Of a stretch of DNA of 20,000 nt, positions 2,141 to 14,180 are shown piece after piece. The stretch lies in the IMG/VR virus record IMGVR_UViG_3300042987_001178, one strand, 5' to 3'. Origin of the DNA: an uncultured virus (IMG/VR IMGVR_UViG_3300042987_001178) (taxonomy: Duplodnaviria > Heunggongvirae > Uroviricota > Caudoviricetes). Position 1 is the first letter of the stretch. Every line of letters starts with the position of its first letter. The notes below the pieces were generated by a model. It was not told where the DNA came from. It saw only the letters and a program-made list of their open reading frames with translations, and made no database searches. The position numbers and the translations under genes were made by a program.

Positions 2141-2726
2141 ATGCAAATATTATTTTCCTTCCTCCCTTTTTAATTTCTTTAAAACCATTCCATATCAGAT
2201 GTTCACCTATCTTGTCAATGTTATGAGTATCTATATCATCAAATACATATACACATTGCTTAGGTTTTCTATCTAAAAAGAAATTTACCTCTTTCATAAC
2301 AGATTCTGTATCATGAGGTCCATCAAAGTGAACCATTTCATATTGTGTTAATAATTTTTTTTCATGATCATAAACAGGATATCCATCTGCAAATCTTTCA
2401 AAAAATTCACTATCTTCTAAATTAATAAAATTAAACTCTGGATAATCTTTAATGATTGCAAGTAAAGCATCTTGTTTCATTTTATTATTATAATTTAATC
2501 TTCCACCAGCATCACTATCAGATGATCTATAAAGAATATTGCCGTAAGGATCTATACCTAAATGATTTAGCTTTATACCAGAATGATATTTTCTATAAGC
2601 GTCTATAATACATTTAGTTCCCATACCAAGGCGAATGCCTATTTCAACACTTACACCAATTGGATTTTTTAATAATTTTACAGCTTCATCAAAGAATTCA
2701 TATTCTTTGCTATCTCCACTGATCAT
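2130..2726 (-). CDS. Class I SAM-dependent methyltransferase (Methyltransf_24-like)
   Basis: Motif I VEIGIRLGMGT, GIDPY, VHFDGPH and VFDD motifs. Confidence 0.7.
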   Translation of the reverse strand: MISGDSKEYEFFDEAVKLLKNPIGVSVEIGIRLGMGTKCIIDAYRKYHSGIKLNHLGIDPYGNILYRSSDSDAGGRLNYNNKMKQDALLAIIKDYPEFNFINLEDSEFFERFADGYPVYDHEKKLLTQYEMVHFDGPHDTESVMKEVNFFLDRKPKQCVYVFDDIDTHNIDKIGEHLIWNGFKEIKKGGRKIIFAYES

Positions 2727-2896
2727 GATTTACTAAACATTGGAATAGTCGGAACTATAATTTTAACATCACGTTTAATATCTTCAGGTTTAGCATTAAC
2801 ATCTGCTTTAACCTCTTCTTCATTTTTATAGACGTGTCCTGTCTTTATATTCTTAATTGTGATTTCTGAATCACAAATTATTTTTATTTCTTTCAT
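2723..2896 (-). CDS. Hypothetical protein, 57 aa (MKEIKIICDSEITIKNIKTGHVYKNEEEVKADVNAKPEDIKRDVKIIVPTIPMFSKS)
   Basis: Below the ORF-track cutoff. Fills the gap exactly, with a TAATG overlap upstream and an ATGA overlap downstream. Confidence 0.8.
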   Translation of the reverse strand: MKEIKIICDSEITIKNIKTGHVYKNEEEVKADVNAKPEDIKRDVKIIVPTIPMFSKS

Positions 2897-3231
2897 TATG
2901 TCGTTAATGATCCTCGGTTCACTTCTAATATAGACACAACTCCTGTTACAGCTGTGCTAGCAGCAGAAATTAATAAAGCATCTCCTTCTTCTAAAATAAT
3001 AGGTCCTTTTGCAACATTTTCTGTAGAATTAGAACCTAAACTAATATGAGCTATTTCTGTAGTAGTTGTTGCAGAAGAATCATAAATAAAAACTTCTACT
3101 GTATGACTACCTGATTGATTAGTTAATTGAATAGTTTGAATAACTGCTCTTGCCGTAGCGTTACAAGTATAGACAGTCGTATTAGCTGTTGTTGTCGGAA
3201 TATAGGTTGCGTTTTTATATACGTTAGACAT
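2896..3231 (-). CDS. Small beta-rich virion protein (putative tail-associated)
   Basis: 111 aa, Thr/Val-rich, with an IILEEGDAL motif; AAGGA just upstream; lies in the structural block after the nozzle-like gene. Confidence 0.6.
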   Translation of the reverse strand: MSNVYKNATYIPTTTANTTVYTCNATARAVIQTIQLTNQSGSHTVEVFIYDSSATTTTEIAHISLGSNSTENVAKGPIILEEGDALLISAASTAVTGVVSILEVNRGSLTT

Positions 3232-3237
3232 TATCCT

Positions 3238-3411
3238 TTATACTCTAATAAAATACCAAGCTTCAGCTTCATTAGCATCTTGTACATCTTGTGTAAAGGT
3301 ATTATTTAACTGAAGAACCATCTGTTCTAGTGTTCTAATAATCTGGTCCATTTGTTGTTGATTATATTGTGGAGTAGCGTTTGCTAATCTGGGTTGATCT
3401 AGTTTAGCCAT
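3238..3411 (-). CDS. Hypothetical helical protein, 57 aa (MAKLDQPRLANATPQYNQQQMDQIIRTLEQMVLQLNNTFTQDVQDANEAEAWYFIRV)
   Basis: Not in the ORF track. TAATG overlap with the stop of the 617-aa gene; amphipathic helix pattern; fills the gap. Confidence 0.8.
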   Translation of the reverse strand: MAKLDQPRLANATPQYNQQQMDQIIRTLEQMVLQLNNTFTQDVQDANEAEAWYFIRV

Positions 3412-5272: not shown

Positions 5273-5301
5273 CTTATACCACCAAATATGTTGATTTACA
5301 C
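5273..5301 (-). promoter_or_regulatory. Possible extended -10 promoter and RBS for the nozzle-like gene
   Basis: GTGTAA, 17 nt spacer ending in TGG, then TATAAG, then 8 nt to ATG. AAGGA overlaps the -10 and could serve as SD. Confidence 0.3.
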
Positions 5302-5952
5302 TACTTTAGTGAATGGTGGTAATCCTAATAGAGGTCTTTTATCATATAAATTGGATTGTGCAAACTGTCCATTTACATGGTTATAATGCAAGAAAACTTG
5401 CGCACAAATATTACCAGTAAACTCTTCTCTCCAATGTTCTAATTCACAACCAGAATAAACTAACATATCACCTGGTTCTAAATCTACTTTAATGCCTTTT
5501 GGAGCATTAGGTTTCATTATGTTTTTATATTCATCTATTACGTTATTACTTCCTGTTGGATCAATAAATATTGGCCAAGCATCTCCACCAAGGTTTAATG
5601 TTGTAGATATCTCACAAGATGGTCTGTCTTTATGTCTTTTTAAAATAGAACCTTTCTCATAAACGCGCGCGTACGAGTATGTAGGAATTAAATCTAAATT
5701 AGTTTGTTGTTTCATTATAGGCATAACCTTCATTAATAATGTTTCCATAACAAAATCAGCATAATGGGAATATACATTTGGAACTTGTTGATCCTTCCAA
5801 GTACCTAACATCCCGTTCTCCGCTACTATATTATTTGAATATAGATAATTAACTGCCTCTCTTTTAAGTAGGAAATAGTTAAATATAAAATTAGCAAGTT
5901 CATATGGAATTGCTTTTTTAATTACTTGGTATTTATTCTGTTGAAAACTCAT
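5296..5952 (-). CDS. 2OG-Fe(II) oxygenase superfamily protein
   Basis: YSYARVY, HxD (LKRHKDRPSCEIS), distal His (EHWRE), QVFLHY. Start placed at ATG 5952, which forms an ATGA overlap with the upstream stop. Confidence 0.8.
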   Translation of the reverse strand: MSFQQNKYQVIKKAIPYELANFIFNYFLLKREAVNYLYSNNIVAENGMLGTWKDQQVPNVYSHYADFVMETLLMKVMPIMKQQTNLDLIPTYSYARVYEKGSILKRHKDRPSCEISTTLNLGGDAWPIFIDPTGSNNVIDEYKNIMKPNAPKGIKVDLEPGDMLVYSGCELEHWREEFTGNICAQVFLHYNHVNGQFAQSNLYDKRPLLGLPPFTKVV

Positions 5953-6542
5953 GTGATCATACAACGTTGCATGAAATTAAAACTCACTGAAATTCTAATA
6001 TCATTAGATTGATTTGGATCTACACAGTGATTCAGCCAGCTTGGAAACATAATTAATCTTCCTGCAACTGGTTCAAAATGAACTTCTCTCCATAAATAAG
6101 ATTCTAATGGTCCCTCTTTTCTTCTTGGCATAGACATTAAAGCTACTGACTTTGGATCTTCTACTTTTAAATGTCCACAATTTTGTGGAGTCTTAACATA
6201 ATAAACTCCAGACCATAATGAATTAGGATGCATGTGCGGTCTATTATATCCACCTGGTGGATTAATGTTTGCCCACATATTACCCAAAAATGGTTCTGAA
6301 TCTAAATTTTGATCTTTGTAAATATGAAACTGTGCTTGGAATAATAAATCTACGAGTTCTTTATATTCTGGTTTTGTATGCATATCATCTGTTGAATGCC
6401 AACCGTTCATGTTGGTTCTTGTCAAACCTCTATCTTGATTAGACCAATTAATAATGTTCTGTTCTAGACGTGCATTAAATTCTTGTGATCCAACATCTTT
6501 AACATAGATTGGTGTTGCAAAATATAATTCTCTATTCATCAT
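5949..6542 (-). CDS. 2OG-Fe(II) oxygenase, TIGR02466 / 2OG-FeII_Oxy_5-like
   Basis: WANINPPGGYNRPHMHPNSLWSGVYYV (HxH), FPSWLNHCV, RISVSFN. Confidence 0.85.
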   Translation of the reverse strand: MMNRELYFATPIYVKDVGSQEFNARLEQNIINWSNQDRGLTRTNMNGWHSTDDMHTKPEYKELVDLLFQAQFHIYKDQNLDSEPFLGNMWANINPPGGYNRPHMHPNSLWSGVYYVKTPQNCGHLKVEDPKSVALMSMPRRKEGPLESYLWREVHFEPVAGRLIMFPSWLNHCVDPNQSNDIRISVSFNFMQRCMIT

Positions 6543-7117
6543 TTAAATGGAGTTCCTCCAACCCAAAGTACTAAAGACTTTCTATTTCCTTTTGTAATTG
6601 GAACTACTCTATGTCTAATAAATGATGCAAAGAATATAGCTTGTCCTTGTTTAGGTCTTGCAATCTTTCCATCTGACATTAATTCTAATCCACCACCTTC
6701 AAATTCTGATTCATGTGATAATAAACAAGTCATAGATATTTTTCTAACCGGGGGTTCATTTGCACAATTAACATCTGAATCTATATGCCAATCATAAAAT
6801 CCACCTTCTGGGTACTCTGTATACTGTGCCGGTTCCGAAATTTGTAATCCTTCAAATCCAAAATGATTTCTATTAGTTTGATGTATTACTCTTTCTAATG
6901 TTGCATACATTTCTGGCATTTTGCTAAATGGAATCCAGCTAATGTGAGATGTTCTAGTTTTAGTATCTACAGTTCCTTTTGCACCGCCACCTACTTCTCC
7001 CATTTGAACTGGTTCAGATCTTCCTGCGTTTATAATTAATTGACACTGTTCTGGTGTAAATAGTGGAGTTGTTGTTTCAACTATTAAACTTTTCCATTTT
7101 GGTTCCGTGTGGATCAT
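6539..7117 (-). CDS. PKHD/prolyl-4-hydroxylase-like 2OG-Fe(II) oxygenase (2OG-FeII_Oxy_3-like)
   Basis: QYTEY..GGFYDWHID (HxD), RKISM, FEGGGL, HRVVP, RKSLVLW (2OG-binding Arg). Confidence 0.85.
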   Translation of the reverse strand: MIHTEPKWKSLIVETTTPLFTPEQCQLIINAGRSEPVQMGEVGGGAKGTVDTKTRTSHISWIPFSKMPEMYATLERVIHQTNRNHFGFEGLQISEPAQYTEYPEGGFYDWHIDSDVNCANEPPVRKISMTCLLSHESEFEGGGLELMSDGKIARPKQGQAIFFASFIRHRVVPITKGNRKSLVLWVGGTPFK

Positions 7118-7764
7118 TGTGCTCCTCTGTTAATTATTGGGTTATATAATACATCGCAGTTAGCTGCTAATGTTCTTCTTGTTTCTTGCGTGCCGTTGAA
7201 TGGATAGACACAGTGTCTCATATCATATGGAAATATATAAAAGTCTCTTAATTTCATTGGTGGTTCATAATCTACTTTTGCAAACTGTCCATTAGAAGCT
7301 CCTAGTATCTGTAATTTACCATTTTGTGGGGATTCTGATGCAGAATATTCTACACCATAAGTAGAAGGAAGTTTTAAAATCATTACTGAAGACAGTCCAG
7401 TGAAGATATTTCCGCTATGTATGTGAACGGGGTTAAATTCGTGAGCACGCATTTCGTTCACCCAAATTGAATTTAAGTGAGTTTGATAATTTCTAATATG
7501 ATTAAATTCTAAATAATGATGAAACATAGACATAAACCAATCAAGAACATTTTTAGGCAACATATTATGGCGTCGCATTTTTGACTCATCTTCCCCGTCA
7601 TAAAATAGAGAATGTTCGTCTTTAATCTTACCTACAAGTTGTTTATTAGCTGGTTCTAATTGATTAAATTTTTGTTCATATGTTTGATTAACTGCATGAA
7701 ATATATCTAATGGTGTTTCATAACGTAAAATAGATTGTCCTAAAAATGTGAAGTTAAAGTTCAT
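7114..7764 (-). CDS. 2OG-Fe(II) oxygenase, TIGR02466-like (HxH type)
   Basis: WVNEMRAHEFNPVHIHSG, LSSVMIL, FPYDMRHCVYPF, RRTLAAN. Confidence 0.75.
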   Translation of the reverse strand: MNFNFTFLGQSILRYETPLDIFHAVNQTYEQKFNQLEPANKQLVGKIKDEHSLFYDGEDESKMRRHNMLPKNVLDWFMSMFHHYLEFNHIRNYQTHLNSIWVNEMRAHEFNPVHIHSGNIFTGLSSVMILKLPSTYGVEYSASESPQNGKLQILGASNGQFAKVDYEPPMKLRDFYIFPYDMRHCVYPFNGTQETRRTLAANCDVLYNPIINRGAQ

Positions 7765-8108
7765 AGTCCCATCTCTTTTCTAATTTTAGTAGCCGATATT
7801 TCTTGTATTTCTTTTGGTAATACAATCTCTTCTATTTTGTAACCAACATCTCTACCATAACATATATTGGTAATGTTAGGTACTTTTACAACATCAAATT
7901 GATCTGCGTAATCTTTAAGCTTTTCTTCAATTCTTTTCTTTATATCTTCAAATTCAAATGGATTATTATTTGTTTGTGGCATTGTTCTAACCATTATACA
8001 AACTTGACCAGTCTTCTTTAATATCTCTTTAAATAAAGCTAAATGTCCATCATGGAATGGTTGCCATCTTCCAAGCATTTGTGCTGTTGGTTTAGAGTAA
8101 TCTATCAT
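7761..8108 (-). CDS. Minimal HxGH nucleotidyltransferase (cytidylyltransferase-like fold)
   Basis: GRWQPFHDGH (HxGH), NPF, and C-terminal ISATKIR (SxT/KMSKS-equivalent). Confidence 0.8.
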   Translation of the reverse strand: MIDYSKPTAQMLGRWQPFHDGHLALFKEILKKTGQVCIMVRTMPQTNNNPFEFEDIKKRIEEKLKDYADQFDVVKVPNITNICYGRDVGYKIEEIVLPKEIQEISATKIRKEMGL

Positions 8109-8481
8109 GTATCTCCTTTATTATGTTATCATAATTAAAATCAGTTATTTCAAAATCTACTTTTTTAGGTTTTTCAAATACTTTATTAGTATCTTCAAAT
8201 CTTCCTTTATTAATTGTATTCATCCAAATCTTCATATCATAGAAAGATCTATAAGATTCAAATGGACAAACAAAGTCTACAACGACGTGGTTGACTGCAA
8301 GATCACACATCGTCATCATTCTATTTGCTTGTCGTCTTCTACCTAAATCTGTAAAATCCCAATCTTCAAATAGCTTTCTAATATCATCTGCATTAAAGTG
8401 AGGTATCTTTTTATTTTCAACTAATTTTTTAGCAAAGGTAGTTTTGCCAGATCCTGGTAATCCAAATATTAATATCTTCAT
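8092..8481 (-). CDS. cysC: Adenylylsulfate (APS) kinase-like P-loop kinase, short form
   Basis: Walker A GLPGSGKT; NADDIR; DWDFTDLGRRRQ resembling the CysC D-x-x-F-x-x-x-x-R motif; VVDFVCP; FEKP. Only 129 aa, shorter than cellular CysC. Confidence 0.65.
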   Translation of the reverse strand: MKILIFGLPGSGKTTFAKKLVENKKIPHFNADDIRKLFEDWDFTDLGRRRQANRMMTMCDLAVNHVVVDFVCPFESYRSFYDMKIWMNTINKGRFEDTNKVFEKPKKVDFEITDFNYDNIIKEIHDRLL

Positions 8482-8690
8482 CTTATTTCTGCTTTCCCTT
8501 CTATCATTGTTAATTTACCAATACAACAAATATTCCATTTTTGTATTCCACCTTCAAAAGTGCATTCATCAAATACAGGAACTTTTATATTTAAATGTCT
8601 CGCTAAAGTTTCTTTACCATTCTCAAAAATTCTCCAAACTAAATCACTCTCACCATGTTTAGTGTTGTATCTAATATGATACTTGTTCAT
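8478..8690 (-). CDS. Hypothetical protein, 70 aa
   Basis: ATGA overlap downstream and a 4-nt start/stop overlap upstream; beta-rich sequence; same strand as its neighbours. Confidence 0.7.
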   Translation of the reverse strand: MNKYHIRYNTKHGESDLVWRIFENGKETLARHLNIKVPVFDECTFEGGIQKWNICCIGKLTMIEGKAEIR

Positions 8691-9502
8691 AATACAATAT
8701 GTCCATACGCACGTACGATACTTTCAGGTATCATTGCACGGTAAGGATTTGCTTCCTTTCTAATCTCTTCTCTAATAGTATGCATTCTATTTCCAACAAC
8801 TTTATCGTCATAAGACATACCATTAACTTTAAATTGATTCAAGCTTTTTAAATTATGATTAAATCTAGGTATTTCTAAAAAATCATATATTTTATTTATT
8901 TGGTTTTCTGTATCATTTACAAGTTCATCATATTTAAGAAAATGACACATATGTTTATTTTCTGGTCTTAATGCATTTTGAATTGCAATAAGATCTTTAG
9001 CAATTGCACCATCAATGTTCATTAGCATAAAAAGCTTTTCTTCTATTGTTTTCTTTCCATATTTATTAGGAAATGCGGAAGGTTCTGTTTCAAACCATTT
9101 AACATAAGATGCAAGAACATCTAATAAATCTCTCCAAATAACGATACATTTAATTGGTTGACCTAGGTGTTGTTTCATTAACATTAGATTTCCTGGTGTC
9201 ATTACAGGACCTCTATCTATGATATACTTATAATTCCAATCTTTATAATAAGAATTGTAGACTGTTGATAATACGTTATCTAATGATTTATGATCTGGAT
9301 AGTTTTGAAATACGTCAGTTTCTTTAAGAAGATAAATATCTTTCATTATTTCTAATGTAATAGAATTAGCAGTCACTGCTATATCTGGATTTTGGTTCAT
9401 AATAGAACCAAATAATGTATTACCGGATCTTGGTAGCGCTAATAAAAAGAATATCTTTTTATGAGGATTGCTTACCAAATGGTAATTGTTCTTTCTTATC
9501 AT
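8687..9502 (-). CDS. PAPS-dependent sulfotransferase (Sulfotransfer_3-like)
   Basis: 5'-PSB loop LPRSGNTL, 3'-PB motif WRDLLDVLASY, and KYDELV...IYDFL. Start uncertain (TTG 9508, ATG 9502 or further downstream). Confidence 0.85.
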   Translation of the reverse strand: MIRKNNYHLVSNPHKKIFFLLALPRSGNTLFGSIMNQNPDIAVTANSITLEIMKDIYLLKETDVFQNYPDHKSLDNVLSTVYNSYYKDWNYKYIIDRGPVMTPGNLMLMKQHLGQPIKCIVIWRDLLDVLASYVKWFETEPSAFPNKYGKKTIEEKLFMLMNIDGAIAKDLIAIQNALRPENKHMCHFLKYDELVNDTENQINKIYDFLEIPRFNHNLKSLNQFKVNGMSYDDKVVGNRMHTIREEIRKEANPYRAMIPESIVRAYGHIVL

Positions 9503-10133
9503 TTCCAAGTTGTTTCTCTTTCTTTATTCTGTCTATTGTATCTACTTGTGAAAGTACATTGAATACTTCAGCTTGTGAAGATCCTGGTGTAATTGAATTC
9601 TTTTTATGTTCCATGATTTGAGCTAAAGATTCAAATTGATGCGTATTAACATTTTTAGTGTCAAATGAACCATCATCATATTCAGCTTTAAATTTAGACC
9701 ATAGTTTAATTTCTCGCAGACGATCTTTTGCAACAAGTTCCATATTTGCTTTACCATAAATCTTTTCATCTAAATCTATTTGATAAAGTTCTCGTTTATA
9801 TTCATCTGTTTCTGTTTCTAATTTCTTTTGTAACCATTTAATCTTTGCTTCATTACGTCTGTAATCAAAAGATAAAGACATTAAATTTTCAAGAAATACG
9901 TTTTGTTCTCTAACACATTGCCAATATTTAGAAGCTCGTGTTGGATAACGACCATCATCTAAAACAGCAACTTTCATTTCTGTTTCAGTTCTGAATATTT
10001 GTTTTTTAGTCCAAGTATCACGAAGTTCTTCAACCATTGATTTAAATGATTTTAAATCTTCAGTTTCAAGTAAGTTATTTAAATGAACTTCTTCTTGTTG
10101 TATTAAGCTCTTAATATTTCTCTTCTCTGTCAT
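9459..10133 (-). CDS. Helical/coiled-coil hypothetical protein
   Basis: 224 aa, charged heptad-like segments, aromatic motif YPTRASKYWQCVREQ; no SD before the ATG. Confidence 0.7.
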   Translation of the reverse strand: MTEKRNIKSLIQQEEVHLNNLLETEDLKSFKSMVEELRDTWTKKQIFRTETEMKVAVLDDGRYPTRASKYWQCVREQNVFLENLMSLSFDYRRNEAKIKWLQKKLETETDEYKRELYQIDLDEKIYGKANMELVAKDRLREIKLWSKFKAEYDDGSFDTKNVNTHQFESLAQIMEHKKNSITPGSSQAEVFNVLSQVDTIDRIKKEKQLGNDKKEQLPFGKQSS

Positions 10134-10140
10134 TAGAGAT

Positions 10141-10169
10141 GATATAAGCTTTTATTATGATGTTGTCAA
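10141..10169 (-). promoter_or_regulatory. Sigma70-like promoter, possibly giving a leaderless transcript of the 224-aa gene and the modification cassette
   Basis: Perfect TTGACA (10164-10169, within codons Leu-Thr of the upstream gene), 17 nt spacer, TATATC (10141-10146), 7 nt, ATG. Confidence 0.55.
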
Positions 10170-11996
10170 GGTTTTGGAATTAGCTGTTGCTACTTCGCCT
10201 GTCCATCTTTCTGTTGCTGATGAATTTGCAGCACCTGTAAATCCACCTGCTGCTAAACCTGCTGTTTGAATACCTGATCCACCAGCAGTGCTTCTTGCTG
10301 TTGCCATAGATGGTAAATTTGTCCAAACGGATCCATTCCAAGATTCTGTTGCTCCTGTAATTGCGGTAGATGTTTCTCCACCAGCAGCAATAGCTGCTGT
10401 TTGTGTACCTATTGCACATACAGCATATCTAGCAGTTCCTAAACTATTTACTGCAGTCCAAGCAGAACCATTCCAAGACTCTGTTGCTCCACTAATAGAT
10501 CCATTATACCTTGAAATAGCTAAAGCAGCAGTTTGAGTTCCTGTTCCACTTACATATCCACTTGTTCCTAAACTAGCAGGATTTGTTGTCCAAGTTGATC
10601 CATTAAAAGATTCTGTTGATCCATAATATGTAGCTGGAATATTAAAACCACCAAAAGCTAAAGTGGCTGTTTGTAATCCTGCTGATCCTAAATTTCTTCT
10701 CGCTGTATTTAATCCTGTTGGATTAGAAGTCCAAGCTGTACCATTCCATAATTCTGTTGCTGCTGAACTTGCATTAGGAGGATTAATTGCACCACCAAAT
10801 GCTACGGATGAAGTTTGGGTTCCAGCTCCACCAAGTCTTCTTCTTGCAGTATTCATGGAATTAACTGAAGTCCATGAAGATCCATTATAAGATTCTGTTG
10901 CTGATATATCTACTGTTGTAAATCCACCAAAAATTAATGAAGCAGTTTGAGTTCCTGATCCAGCTCCAGCTCCTTGTCGTCTCGCCGTATTTAGATTCCC
11001 GCCGCTCGCCCAGGCAGCTGCGCTGTAAGAATAGACACCGAAGTTCCATTCATCTGTTATTGATGATGCGGCAGTAGTATAACCACCAGCTACAAAACCA
11101 GCTGTTTGAGTTCCAGTTGTTCCAATTGTTCTATATCCACCTGCTGTTGGTGTAGCAGTTGTAGCTGTCCAACTAGTTCCATTCCAAGATTCTGTAGATG
11201 TAACATATCCTGTTACTATAGATCCATTTGCTGCTATTGCTGCTGTTTGAATTCCAAAACCTGCTAAAGAATCTCTAGCTTGATTCATTGAATTTACTGA
11301 AGTCCATGAAGTACCATTATAAGATTCTGTTGCTGCTGAATAAGGTGGTGATGCAGGTGAGTTTCCGCCAAAAGCTAATGCAGAGGTATTAGAAGCTCCT
11401 GCTCCAGCTAAATATCCTCTTGCTGTGTTTAAACTTGGTGTGTTAGTCCAACTTGTACCATTATAAGATTCAGATGATGATATAGATCCGTGACCTCCAA
11501 AAGCTAAAGCTGATGTTTGTATACCAGCATTACCTCTATATCTTGTAGAAGCACTAGTTGTATTTCCTGTTGTCCAAGATGTTCCATTCCATTTTTCTGT
11601 AGCATTAGAACTTGTTCCTGGAATATCTAATCTTCCATCAACAGCAAGTCCAGCTGTTTGAGTTCCAATACCTCCAACTCTACTTCTAGCAGTATTCATA
11701 CTATTAACTGCTGTCCAAGCTATTCCATTATATGCTTCTGTTGTTGTAACTGGTGATCCTGGTTGTGTTGATCCACCTAAAACTAGACCAGCTGTTTGAG
11801 TTCCTAATCCACCAAGACCATATCTTGCTGTTCCTAAATTTCCTCCCGCTGACCAAGTGCCAGTAGGAAGCCATGACTTTAATGTAGCCGTGGTTGAGTT
11901 ATACCACACCTGTCCATCTGAATTAGAATCAACGTACGTTGGGTCGGATGATAAAAAGTTGACTCGTCTTCCCGCTATTTCATTATAAGTAGTCAT
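10155..11996 (-). CDS. Kelch-like double beta-propeller protein (12 blades), putative receptor-binding/tail protein
   Basis: Twelve ~45-aa repeats G[TIL]QTA.L.FGG...TE[SA][WY]NG.SW..... NTAR; N-terminal SDP...GQVWYN anchor; C-terminal KTLTTS. Confidence 0.75.
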   Translation of the reverse strand: MTTYNEIAGRRVNFLSSDPTYVDSNSDGQVWYNSTTATLKSWLPTGTWSAGGNLGTARYGLGGLGTQTAGLVLGGSTQPGSPVTTTEAYNGIAWTAVNSMNTARSRVGGIGTQTAGLAVDGRLDIPGTSSNATEKWNGTSWTTGNTTSASTRYRGNAGIQTSALAFGGHGSISSSESYNGTSWTNTPSLNTARGYLAGAGASNTSALAFGGNSPASPPYSAATESYNGTSWTSVNSMNQARDSLAGFGIQTAAIAANGSIVTGYVTSTESWNGTSWTATTATPTAGGYRTIGTTGTQTAGFVAGGYTTAASSITDEWNFGVYSYSAAAWASGGNLNTARRQGAGAGSGTQTASLIFGGFTTVDISATESYNGSSWTSVNSMNTARRRLGGAGTQTSSVAFGGAINPPNASSAATELWNGTAWTSNPTGLNTARRNLGSAGLQTATLAFGGFNIPATYYGSTESFNGSTWTTNPASLGTSGYVSGTGTQTAALAISRYNGSISGATESWNGSAWTAVNSLGTARYAVCAIGTQTAAIAAGGETSTAITGATESWNGSVWTNLPSMATARSTAGGSGIQTAGLAAGGFTGAANSSATERWTGEVATANSKTLTTS

Positions 11997-12350: not shown

Positions 12351-14180
12351 CTAACTTGTTGTTAATGTTTTATAGTTTAAAGTCGTTGATGGGCCTGTGA
12401 ATTCTTCTGTGGCTGATGAAATACCCGGAGCTAAATATCCACCAAATCCTAAACCAGCAGCTTGTGTTCCTGCACCAGCCATAGCGTATCTTGATGTTCC
12501 AAGTCCTGTTGGATTAGAAGTCCAACTTGATCCATTCCATAATTCTGTTGCATTTGTAACTGGTGATCCACCAAAAGCAAGTCCTGATGTTTGTGTTCCA
12601 GTACCTGCTCTATTACCTTTAGCAGTATTTAATGAACCAACAGTTGTCCAACTTGTTCCATTCCAAGATTCTGTAGCATTTCCAGGACTTCCACCACCAA
12701 ACGCTAAAGCAGCAGTTTGTAAACCTAATCCTCCTATAGAAGTTCTTGCTGTATTTAATGAATTAACTGAAGTCCATGTTGAACCATTAAAAGATTCTGT
12801 TGCTGCTGTAACAGGAGCAGACGGTCTTGCATCACCTCCAAAAGCTAAAGCTGATGAACTGGAAGCACCTGCTCCAGCTAATAAAAATCTTGCTGTATTT
12901 AATCCAGTTGGATTATTTGTCCATGCTGTTCCATTAAATAATTCTGTAGAACTTGAAACAGCTCCGGCACCATTATCTCCACCTGCAGATATTGCAGATG
13001 TTTGTGTTCCTGCTCCCATTCCATATCTATGAGTAGCATTATTCATATTTGCAGGAGATGATGTCCAACTTGTACCATTATATAATTCTGTTGCTAAACT
13101 AGCTCCAGGACCTCCAGTTATTGAACCAGCAAATGCAATTGCTGAAGTTTGAGTTCCTCCTCCACCTAAACCATATCTTGCCGTATTTAACGCTCCACCA
13201 CTGCTCCAGGATCCAGCAACGGGGACAACGACTGAACGATCCCATTCTTCTGTTGCTGATGAAGCTGCTGTTGTATAACCACCAAATGCTAAACCTGCTG
13301 TTTGTGTACCAGATCCACCTAATGAAGTTCTTGCTGTAGTTAAAGAAATTGGAGAAGATGTCCAAGAAGTTCCATTATAAGTCTCTGTTGCTGCAGAAAC
13401 TGCTGTTATATATCCACCGAATCCTAAAGCTGCAGTTTGTGTTCCACAACCTGCTAATAGTCTTCTAGCAGTATTCATAGAATTTACAGAAGTCCAAGCA
13501 GAACCATTATAAGTTTCTGTAGCTGCTGTATTGTTAGTATTAGGTAATGAAGCATTTCCACCAAAAGCTAAAGCAGATGTTTGAGTTCCTGCACCACCTA
13601 ATTGTCTTCTAGAAGTGTTCATACTTGGAGTATTAGTCCATGCCGTTCCATTATAAGATTCAGAAACATTTGTTGCTGCTCCAGGAATAGAATTACTTCC
13701 TCCAAAACCTAAAGCTGCTGTTTGTAAACCAGCTGCAGCTAATTGATTTCTTGCTGTATTCATAGTAGCAGGTAAAGTTGTCCAAGCACTTCCATTCCAA
13801 GATTCTGTTGCAGCCGAATAAGTTGTTGTAACACCACCAAAAGCAAGACCAGCAGTATTTGTTCCAGCACCACCTAAAGTTCCTCTTCCAGTATTTAAAG
13901 TAGAAGTTGCTGTCCATGATGTACCATTATAAGATTCTGAATTAGTTCTAGCAGGATCTCCACCAAATGCTAAAGAAGCAGATTGAGTACCTATTCCTGT
14001 TAATTCTTGTCTAGCAGTATTTAAATTTCCACCAGAACTCCAAACACCATAAGAACCTAAAGCCGTCTTAAACGTGCCACTCGTTGAGTTATACCAGATT
14101 TGTCCTTCGGCGTCCGTGGATGTTGGGTCGGAAGCGACGTTCTGTACGTATTTACCAAAGAGTTCTTTATATGTTGTCAT
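12351..14180 (-). CDS. Kelch-like double beta-propeller protein (12 blades), putative receptor-binding/tail protein
   Basis: Twelve repeats with linker EEWDRSVVVPVAGSW after blade 6; SDP...EGQIWYN anchor; KTLTTS end; TAATG overlap with the upstream gene. Confidence 0.75.
   Translation of the reverse strand: MTTYKELFGKYVQNVASDPTSTDAEGQIWYNSTSGTFKTALGSYGVWSSGGNLNTARQELTGIGTQSASLAFGGDPARTNSESYNGTSWTATSTLNTGRGTLGGAGTNTAGLAFGGVTTTYSAATESWNGSAWTTLPATMNTARNQLAAAGLQTAALGFGGSNSIPGAATNVSESYNGTAWTNTPSMNTSRRQLGGAGTQTSALAFGGNASLPNTNNTAATETYNGSAWTSVNSMNTARRLLAGCGTQTAALGFGGYITAVSAATETYNGTSWTSSPISLTTARTSLGGSGTQTAGLAFGGYTTAASSATEEWDRSVVVPVAGSWSSGGALNTARYGLGGGGTQTSAIAFAGSITGGPGASLATELYNGTSWTSSPANMNNATHRYGMGAGTQTSAISAGGDNGAGAVSSSTELFNGTAWTNNPTGLNTARFLLAGAGASSSSALAFGGDARPSAPVTAATESFNGSTWTSVNSLNTARTSIGGLGLQTAALAFGGGSPGNATESWNGTSWTTVGSLNTAKGNRAGTGTQTSGLAFGGSPVTNATELWNGSSWTSNPTGLGTSRYAMAGAGTQAAGLGFGGYLAPGISSATEEFTGPSTTLNYKTLTTS

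Follow-up and report, generated by a model that had tools for sequence, protein, structure and literature searches.

Metazoan PAPS synthases (PAPSS1/2; 1x6v) make 3'-phosphoadenosine 5'-phosphosulfate (PAPS) in two steps, sulfate being converted into adenosine 5'-phosphosulfate (APS), and this into PAPS, with an APS kinase that precedes an adenylyltransferase of the HIGH superfamily. A possible viral counterpart lies in a 20,000-nucleotide (nt) stretch of DNA, here called the window, from an uncultured virus of the Caudoviricetes (IMG/VR IMGVR_UViG_3300042987_001178). It encodes, in one overlapping run, a sulfotransferase, a 70-amino-acid (aa) open reading frame (ORF), a 129-aa kinase and a 115-aa HxGH nucleotidyltransferase (NTase). 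Read through comparative genomics, kinase and NTase probably form a split minimal PAPS synthase that feeds the phage sulfotransferase, which is the best reading of the locus.

The two halves of 1x6v match both window models (kinase Z 14.9, transferase Z 6.5), and the commonest fused relatives of the window pair have the same kinase-then-transferase order. The metazoan enzyme, however, has a Sat catalytic domain of about 200 aa plus an extra N-terminal domain, whereas the window NTase has 115 aa and is NadM-like; the window kinase is lid-less, and the pair is encoded by separate overlapping genes. Sat ATP sulfurylase (PF01747; Thermus 1v47) shares with the NTase the superfamily fold, the HxxH motif and, as predicted here, the reaction, but the NTase is about half the size of the Sat catalytic domain, belongs to another branch of the superfamily and does not match PF01747. 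The archaeal and NadM-type nicotinamide mononucleotide (NMN) adenylyltransferases (NMNATs; 1f9a, 2qjt; TIGR01527) are its best match in sequence and fold and have the GRxQPxHxGH and SxTxIR motifs in common with it. Unlike them, the NTase is about 50 residues shorter, has a YGRxVGY motif of its own and keeps sulfur rather than NAD partners in the genome.

CysC (PF01583, TIGR00455) resembles the window kinase in its P-loop fold, in being its best structural match and in the conserved R35, F43, R48 and P73; the window kinase differs in lacking about 20 lid residues and in scoring below both the Pfam and the NCBIfam cut-offs. A further parallel is coenzyme A (CoA) synthase, in which phosphopantetheine adenylyltransferase (PPAT), a HIGH adenylyltransferase, precedes dephospho-CoA kinase, a P-loop kinase whose target is the adenosine 3'-OH. 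The NTase is matched by PPAT at Z 10.9 and the kinase by dephospho-CoA kinases at Z 11.2-9.1, but the window kinase is nearer to APS kinases (Z 15.2-13.6) and the context is sulfur, not CoA.

Phage-borne members of the CysC family have been described from aquatic viruses, some of which are predicted to infect freshwater relatives of SAR11. Among Lake Biwa viral genomes, 4 were reported to carry CysC and 17 to carry CysH, and both were interpreted as aids to host assimilation; the main text of that report has no occurrence of the word "sulfotransferase", and its passages on these genes describe no partner nucleotidyltransferase (bioRxiv 10.1101/655167). The genes cysC, cysD and cysH are listed among Lake Baikal viral genes (PMC8066274), and Pelagibacter is described as being without assimilatory sulfate reduction (PMC5069961). 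Full-text literature searches turned up neither a small NMNAT-like ATP sulfurylase nor this phage cassette.

The cassette consists of four overlapping minus-strand genes between tail-fibre genes and three genes for 2-oxoglutarate (2OG)-Fe(II) oxygenases. Its members, from upstream to downstream, are as follows.

8687..9508, minus strand: PAPS-type sulfotransferase, 273 aa from TTG at 9508, or 271 aa from ATG at 9502, two codons in
8478..8690, minus strand: 70-aa ORF, an optional insert with no family match
8092..8481, minus strand: minimal APS-kinase homologue, 129 aa, lid-less, P-loop GLPGSGKTT at residues 7-15
7761..8108, minus strand: NadM-like HxGH nucleotidyltransferase, 115 aa, CTP_transf_like 6.8e-07

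The four genes are real and lie at these positions. The coordinates confirm the overlapping run inside the tail module that a preliminary description of this DNA had reported, with tail-fibre-like and SU10 adaptor genes upstream and a virion structural protein downstream. The sulfotransferase gene overlaps the 70-aa ORF by 4 nt, the 70-aa ORF overlaps the kinase gene by 4 nt and the kinase gene overlaps the NTase gene by 17 nt; the overlap of the NTase gene with the first oxygenase gene (7114-7764) is again 4 nt. Since all cassette genes overlap, the arrangement is consistent with coupled translation.

In the proposed mechanism, the 115-aa HxGH protein would adenylylate sulfate (ATP + sulfate -> APS + pyrophosphate, PPi), and the 129-aa lid-less kinase would turn APS into PAPS by phosphorylation at the 3'-OH. 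The sulfotransferase encoded immediately upstream would spend that PAPS on sulfating an acceptor. The NTase would then be a third kind of ATP sulfurylase, derived from the NadM/archaeal-NMNAT branch and distinct from Sat and CysDN. The phage would probably have acquired it from streamlined alphaproteobacteria, which have the same pair in a cysH operon.

A lid-less kinase and a small nucleotidyltransferase

Searched alone, the kinase matches generic P-loop families together with Pfam APS_kinase (4.9e-04, 20.6 bits); against TIGR00455 it scores 20.1 bits, the cut-off being 138.7. Its AlphaFold (AF2) model has a predicted local distance difference test score (pLDDT) of 97.3. When this model is compared with 48,161 solved chains, ranks 1-5 are all APS kinases, aligned over 118-129 residues: M. 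tuberculosis CysC (Z 15.2), APE1195 (15.2), human PAPSS1 (14.9), Aquifex Sat/APSK (14.2) and the Thiobacillus enzyme (13.6). Kti12 (13.3), gluconate kinases (12.9) and the dephospho-CoA kinases follow. A profile of the fused family places 23 APS-kinase or APSK-like chains first, from 1.6e-21.

Aligned with 54 relatives, the kinase keeps the P-loop along with R35, F43, R48 and P73. These four residues, conserved in at least 90% of the family alignment, line up with the canonical CysC fusions; we take them to represent the CysC motifs DGDxxR, FS..R and ISP. A Gln stands in place of the Asn of the E-N motif. The lid of canonical CysC has the consensus RDxKGLYxKAxxGxIxxFTG, and the relatives form a gradient from the minimal lid-less kinase to full canonical CysC. 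Fused relatives of the same minimal type pass the Pfam APS_kinase cut-off (P0016 39.1 bits, P0035 54.3 bits). The preliminary description had called the 129-aa protein APS-kinase-like, a label borne out by the five best folds and by this grading into CysC. Judged by sequence and modelled fold, the kinase is a reduced APS kinase by descent, and it would still phosphorylate APS without the lid.

Two other settings for the kinase were rejected. A NadR-like combination of nicotinamide riboside kinase with NMNAT fits poorly, as the former is absent from the 50 best fold matches of the kinase and gives a weak profile match (0.0038). The Campylobacter-type phosphoramidate-cofactor pathway, in which a CysC-like kinase acts on a cytidine diphosphate amidate (CDP-amidate), was set aside because the window has no glutamine kinase or amidohydrolase. 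Prediction of a kinase-NTase complex scored 0.00 in both runs (tool mark 0.32) and gives no verdict.

The NTase matches Pfam CTP_transf_like above its cut-off (6.8e-07), with HDGH at residues 19-22 and ISATKIR at residues 104-110, and its AF2 model has a pLDDT of 96.7. The closest folds are those of the archaeal NMNAT 1f9a (Z 11.2, 104 residues aligned), NadM (10.9), PPAT (10.9) and NadR (9.3). Thermus ATP sulfurylase (1v47, chain B) reaches 8.9 over 112 aligned residues and other Sat enzymes reach 5.8-6.5. Foldseek concurs on the fold, with 1ej2 as the top match (5e-05). NCBIfam models for NMNAT, FAD synthase and PPAT are listed for the NTase, all far under their cut-offs; the NadM-type models TIGR01527 and NF002243 give 28 bits against 181.2 and 32.9 bits against 127.

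Scans of 76 aligned family members find CTP_transf_like in 72 and APS_kinase in 45. Near-invariant in these 76 are G13, R14, Q16, P17, H19, G21 and H22, R41, Y84, G85, R86, V88, G89 and Y90, and I104, S105 and R110. The family is thus marked by its specific motif YGRxVGY (mostly YGRDVGY), together with GRxQPxHxGH, R41 and ISxTxxR; Sat enzymes are marked by a GRDHAG loop and a QTRN sulfate site. Compared with 1f9a, the NTase has about 24 fewer residues from the core to SxTxIR, and the C-terminal ~35 residues are absent. Residues 7-114 of the model cover residues 1-134 of the 164-residue NMNAT chain, and in the sequence alignment residues 75-113 correspond to 71-133 of 1f9a. The missing part presumably holds the nicotinamide/NMN site of 1f9a. 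By sequence and predicted structure, the NTase is a member of the NadM-like branch of the HIGH superfamily; its genomic context suggests sulfate as the substrate.

Fusions, operons and linkage to sulfotransferases

Among 1.84 billion representatives searched, NTase relatives number 1471 at E <= 0.001. A kinase lies on the same chain in 63 of the best 150 representatives, as scored by a hidden Markov model (HMM) partly built from those same proteins, so that the architecture is counted here rather than discovered. Fusion of the two ORFs, for which the preliminary description proposed a survey, is therefore common. Kinase-then-NTase is the commonest fused order. Most fusions carry the minimal kinase, and some carry a full canonical CysC: APS_kinase is matched over the whole model in the kinase-then-NTase proteins P0027 (5.9e-48), P0084 (1.3e-45) and P0122 (5.8e-59), and the reverse order with a canonical kinase is found in P0080 (5.7e-63) and in L083 (2.8e-65), the latter chromosomal in a single-cell genome of the OCS116 cluster. 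A genome scan with the P0080 protein returned mostly plain CysC, the NTase being present only in L083 and L084. The family phrog_10255 ("kinase", 230 positions) spans both the window kinase (2-121) and the NTase (124-229). Fused forms occur in cultured phages of Xylella (Sano, Salvo, Bacata) and Stenotrophomonas (DLP6, Suzuki), and also in Clavibacter phage 33 and the Xanthomonas phages AhaSv and Seregon.

Other joined forms were seen. In P0136 (432 aa) the partner of the NTase is a DHH/DHHA1 phosphoesterase that shows DHH and GGGH motifs (DHHA1 7.4e-05, below cut-off). This family includes NrnA, the phosphatase of 3'-phosphoadenosine 5'-phosphate (pAp), which would remove the by-product of sulfotransfer. 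Among close NTase relatives, 61-67% identical (P0007, P0008, P0012 and P0001), some appear joined to pieces of chorismate synthase, 3-dehydroquinate synthase or ubiquitin hydrolase, two of these partners being shikimate-pathway enzymes, and P0001 has an internal duplication; these forms are probably chimeras of assembly or gene calling.

The cellular sample comprised 401 alphaproteobacterial genomes, of which 11 carry the NTase, the unpublished G242 among them. The order of G321 was searched through 11 genomes: 10 have the NTase, 66-70% identical to that of the window, and in 9 of these 10 cysH ends 867-905 bp upstream on the same strand. The annotated operons of G321 and G189 read cysG/cobA, cysI, cysH, DUF2061, a 168-aa minimal kinase and a 117-aa NTase, with cysI (sulfite reductase hemoprotein) at 698 and 708 bits against a cut-off of 457 and cysH (phosphoadenylyl-sulfate reductase) at 259 and 252 bits against 154. 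All 11 genomes have exactly one match to the PAPS_reduct family, in an open frame of 234-288 aa; this is the size of cysH, and no second, CysD-like match was found. Sat was found in 1 of the 11. For both enzymes absence means not found rather than proven, the assemblies being of 0.6-1.2 Mb and unstated completeness. The sulfurylase is the sole step of assimilatory sulfate reduction without a recognisable gene in these genomes, and the NTase occupies its expected place. Neither Sat nor CysD was found in G153 (one 2.06-Mb contig) or G011 (5.9 Mb). The CysC fusions and the conserved cysH operon support, at the level of gene content, a functional tie between the NTase and APS kinase.

A small DUF2061 membrane protein recurs beside the pair. 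Two bacterial operons have it between cysH and the kinase (L219:3487-3780 and L220:5854-6126; 7.7e-20 and 5.9e-22), a T4-like marine contig has it immediately behind the fused gene (L194:6761-7015), and in P0009 it is fused to the NTase. It might have a role in sulfate uptake or anchoring.

The window sulfotransferase is above the cut-offs of Pfam Sulfotransfer_1 (PF00685; 1.3e-13, 51.4 bits against 22) and Sulfotransfer_3 (PF13469; 3.2e-11, 44.3 bits against 27), and matches phrog_27463, which has no function label, at 3.6e-48. A profile of its family, compared with the PDB, finds the CurM sulfotransferase (3.8e-09), TPST1 (7.9e-09, profile positions 5-196) and TPST2, followed by cytosolic SULTs; the matches to these protein-tyrosine sulfotransferases cover most of the profile length, and all solved sulfotransferases matched are PAPS-dependent. 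The PRSGNT stretch (residues 26-31) and the RDLLDVLAS stretch resemble what we take to be the 5'-phosphosulfate-binding (5'-PSB) and 3'-phosphate-binding (3'-PB) motifs.

For the linkage survey, 437 IMG/VR relatives were collected and 80 loci kept, in which the NTase is 86-98% identical to that of the window. Kinase and NTase occur together in 80/80; in 14/80, one or two genes (2OG oxygenase, Asp/Arg hydroxylase or unassigned) are inserted between them. An HMM of the lineage's sulfotransferases was applied to the 73 assessable loci, the other 7 beginning too near the kinase. A sulfotransferase lies upstream of the kinase in 65 of the 73, a count among close kin and not of independent events. 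It ends less than 150 bp from the kinase start in 55 loci and 209-1409 bp upstream in 10 more. The co-occurrence with sulfotransferases for which the preliminary description had likewise called is therefore frequent in this lineage. These sulfotransferases are only 22-64% identical to that of the window, beside the conserved NTase, so the linkage has outlived exchange of the partner.

The 70-aa ORF had been counted as a cassette member. It is present and overlapping in the window, but tblastn finds it in only 3/80 related loci (L011, L012 and L036) and it is therefore not a core part; no library scan that was run gave it a family match.

Cellular genomes show the link as well, independently of the phage lineage: Sulfotransfer_3 is encoded by 9 of the 11 alphaproteobacterial NTase carriers and by 2 of 14 controls, and Sulfotransfer_1 by 5 of the 11. 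A sulfotransferase lies within about 3 kb of the pair in 3 of the 11: in G153 the fused kinase-NTase gene is followed immediately by a Sulfotransfer_3 gene (1.7e-18), and in G400 and G246 the distance is ~3 kb. G011 has sulfotransferase matches at five places. Unannotated neighbours of the pair were also compared with the sulfotransferase profile by hhalign (L169:6943-7818, L032:4945-5631 and L222:6947-7933); the probabilities were at most 1.6 and none was significant. In a Pfam scan, L222:6947-7933 is assigned to Sulfotransfer_3 and the L169 and L032 ORFs have no assignment.

Weighing the explanations

A number of observations weigh against a split PAPS synthase dedicated to the sulfotransferase, beginning with the proteins themselves. 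The kinase falls under the Pfam APS_kinase (PF01583) cut-off, at 20.6 against 21.1 bits, and the roughly 20 missing lid residues are evident on alignment with the canonical fusion P0084. The closest solved sequences to the NTase are the archaeal NMNAT 1f9a (3.3e-06) and NadM 2qjt, and Sat-type folds rank below NMNAT and PPAT (Z 8.9 and 5.8-6.5 against 11.2 and 10.9). PF01747 gives no match to the NTase at E <= 0.1 in the Pfam scan and is not among the 25 families listed in the scans of the 76 members; its sole signal, 18.8 bits, falls below the 24.3 cut-off and comes from P0001, a protein with an internal duplication. The idea of a truncated Sat is therefore dropped, the nearest relatives by sequence and fold being archaeal/NadM NMNATs. 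The preliminary description had proposed exactly such a stripped-down Sat. Its sulfurylase assignment keeps the tie to APS kinase through the CysC fusions and the cysH operon, but not the Sat ancestry.

The kinship with NMNATs and PPAT raises the alternative that the NTase adenylylates a phosphate ester (NMN, 4'-phosphopantetheine or another) and that the kinase 3'-phosphorylates the product, giving an NAD-, CoA- or PAPS-analogue cofactor; the adjacent sulfotransferase would be just another gene of a variable island. Source annotations do label the protein PPAT or NMNAT. In Bacata the neighbours of the fused gene are annotated COG3236/GTP cyclohydrolase II and MazG, which belong to nucleotide and not sulfur metabolism; Sano has the same layout, its 147-aa neighbour being annotated only as hypothetical. 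In one marine lineage a TET-associated glycosyltransferase adjoins the fused gene (L202). Sulfotransfer_1, Sulfotransfer_3 and PAPS_reduct have no match in any of five further phage records that carry the fused gene or its kinase (Sano, DLP6, Bacata, phiRSL1 and a T4-like 146-kb contig). Against this alternative stand the fusion partners, which include full canonical CysC down to 5.7e-63 and 2.8e-65, and the cysH-DUF2061-kinase operon (with cysG and cysI in the two genomes examined), which leaves no role for NAD or CoA. The NTase also lacks the ~24 internal and ~35 C-terminal residues of 1f9a where, we assume, nicotinamide is bound, and NMNAT/PPAT NCBIfam models score it at 12-36 bits against cut-offs of 103-449. 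A phosphate-ester substrate is accordingly improbable, and sulfate activation is retained as the reading of the pair.

The dedication of the pair to a sulfotransferase is the other point at issue. Eight of the 73 assessable loci have no sulfotransferase by HMM (L021, L032, L033, L055, L061, L062, L072 and L076, with a weak Sulfotransfer_2 match in L072), the kinship of the loci limits what the remaining 65 can say, and cellular cysH operons contain the pair without a sulfotransferase. The preliminary description had listed independence of the pair from sulfotransferases as a refutation of its proposal. The occurrence of the pair apart from them in the 8 loci, the five other phage records and the cellular operons bears this out in part but leaves the sulfurylase reading unaffected, since cysH is an alternative consumer of the product, and shows a general sulfate-activation unit rather than a dedicated sulfotransferase accessory. 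The earlier interpretation is thus partly supported by the comparative data: it appears right in its core and wrong on ancestry and exclusivity.

A general unit could also serve the host. The pair would then activate sulfate as ordinary auxiliary metabolic genes, boosting assimilation by supplying APS/PAPS to the host CysH, and the sulfotransferase would be incidental or would use host PAPS. The closest cellular homologues, 66-70% identical, do lie in an assimilatory cysH operon; viral CysC and CysH of lake viruses have been read in this way (bioRxiv 10.1101/655167); and the pair stands without a sulfotransferase in 8/73 related loci and in other phages. We regard this as unlikely for the window: a sulfotransferase is upstream in 65/73 loci in spite of its 22-64% identity to that of the window, the window genes overlap, and they lie in the late structural module rather than among early metabolic genes. 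No cysH or cysI was seen in family scans of the window, nor among the neighbouring ORFs scanned in 23/80 related loci.

The presence of canonical sulfurylases in some pair-bearing genomes bears on a last alternative. Sat is found in G189 and CysD in G400 and G242, and CysD is probably also present in the NTase genomes G246 and G002 (a gammaproteobacterial metagenome-assembled genome), so the small enzyme is not always needed; incomplete assemblies of unstated completeness make up most of the cellular set. On the model of fungal ATP sulfurylase, whose APS-kinase-like domain is allosteric, the very small HxGH protein might be a non-catalytic, nucleotide-binding or regulatory partner of the kinase, with APS coming from elsewhere, such as host Sat or AprAB. 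This is very improbable. HxGH, ISxTxxR and several arginines are near-invariant across the 76 members, which is unexpected for a degenerate domain, and no other sulfurylase was found in 10/11 genomes of the G321 order. These comparisons favour, as the probable explanation, a split minimal PAPS synthase that supplies the sulfotransferase.

Genomic setting, candidate acceptors and significance

Along its whole length the window is one minus-strand series of structural and accessory phage genes. In the order upstream to downstream, it runs through two SU10-adaptor-like genes, tail/tail-fibre-like genes, an unassigned gene of 224 aa, the cassette and the three oxygenases, and then through genes for an unassigned 222-aa product, for a virion structural protein of 617 aa, for a methyltransferase and for a group-1 glycosyltransferase. 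Annotated features around the cassette are the following.

10155..11996, minus strand: repeat-rich tail-fibre-like protein, 613 aa, phrog_27227 4.8e-128, upstream of the cassette
7114..7764, minus strand: 2OG-Fe(II) oxygenase, 216 aa, 2OG-FeII_Oxy_5 9.2e-08, phrog_81 1.3e-17
6539..7117, minus strand: 2OG-Fe(II) oxygenase, 192 aa, 2OG-FeII_Oxy_3 4.1e-14
5949..6542, minus strand: 2OG-Fe(II) oxygenase, 197 aa, 2OG-FeII_Oxy_5 3e-29

The 613-aa protein has a paralogue at 12351-14180 (the pair being 609-613 aa, both phrog_27227). These paralogues of ~610 aa contain many ATESWNGTSWT / SESYNGTSWT repeats, with acidic residues beside Tyr/Trp, and have no Pfam match. The 222-aa protein (5296-5964) matches phrog_2954, labelled 'ferrochelatase', at 2.7e-49, yet has no Pfam match, and the label looks unreliable. 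Farther downstream on the same strand lie the Methyltransf_24 methyltransferase (2130-2726) and the group-1 glycosyltransferase (1211-2146); the structural module therefore has glycan- or protein-modifying enzymes besides the sulfation cassette.

One structural protein of the window is 49.7% identical to that of phage DSL-LC04 and 41-42% identical to those of the Pelagibacter phages HTVC027P and HTVC023P. These identities place the phage near the HTVC027P/HTVC023P pelagiphage group. The SAR11 host that the preliminary description implied is not shown by the match of this one protein. A blastn search of window positions 7000-10200 against cultured phages gave no match.

Among close relatives the island around the pair is highly variable and rich in modifying enzymes, including many 2OG oxygenases and Asp/Arg hydroxylases. 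Asp/Arg beta-hydroxylases are inserted between kinase and NTase (L054:5475-6017, L068:4122-4646). Other island genes encode a tryptophan halogenase (L035:4219-5628), a carbamoyltransferase C-terminal domain (L076:3607-4140) and a CmcI-type methyltransferase (L047:2693-3529). T4-like marine contigs likewise have the fused gene amid 2OG oxygenases, with Cys- or Pro-rich structural proteins and a neck protein next to it. A 147-aa gene stands ahead of the fused gene in Casjensviridae phages of Xylella, Xanthomonas and Stenotrophomonas (Sano L001 7172-7615; Bacata L166 4166-4609), with MazG and a 'cysteine dioxygenase' a few genes upstream; neither a sulfotransferase nor cysH was found in these phage genomes. 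In G391, an alphaproteobacterial genome of 1.3 Mb, a split pair lies between a 355-aa protein and a HalD-like 2OG halogenase/hydroxylase (7.7e-11), the flanking genes being at L209:407-1252 and 2255-3322. The 355-aa neighbour has Rieske-type CxH...CxxH motifs, read by eye only, and the neighbourhood echoes the oxygenase neighbourhood of the phages.

The acceptor would probably be a hydroxyl group carried by a virion (tail-fibre) protein or by a molecule of the cell surface; the neighbouring 2OG-Fe(II) oxygenases perhaps create it. The repeat-rich 613-aa tail-fibre-like protein is an inferred candidate substrate. It is reasonable to guess, though this is only a guess, that tail-fibre proteins or a surface glycan are hydroxylated and then O-sulfated, or undergo tyrosine sulfation. 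A fuller scenario can be drawn, though it is unlikely to hold in all its parts: a NadM-derived third class of ATP sulfurylase, of independent evolutionary origin, would fill the missing sulfate-activating step of streamlined planktonic alphaproteobacteria and would have been captured by the phage, together with a lid-less kinase, for late PAPS supply, and a TPST-like sulfotransferase, working after or together with hydroxylation by the adjacent 2OG oxygenases, would sulfate the repeat-rich tail fibres and so tune adsorption or host range.

If the NTase is an ATP sulfurylase, it would be a third enzymatic solution to sulfate activation, in barely 115 residues, and one that current annotation misses under PPAT or NMNAT labels. 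It would change the reading of sulfur metabolism in abundant streamlined bacterioplankton such as the G321 order, which has cysH and no recognisable sulfurylase in 10/11 genomes, and it would change the counting of viral cysC genes as auxiliary metabolic genes. The virus would carry donor synthesis and transferase together inside its tail module. That placement suggests that the sulfated molecules belong to the virion or the cell surface; in phages such modification has hardly been explored.

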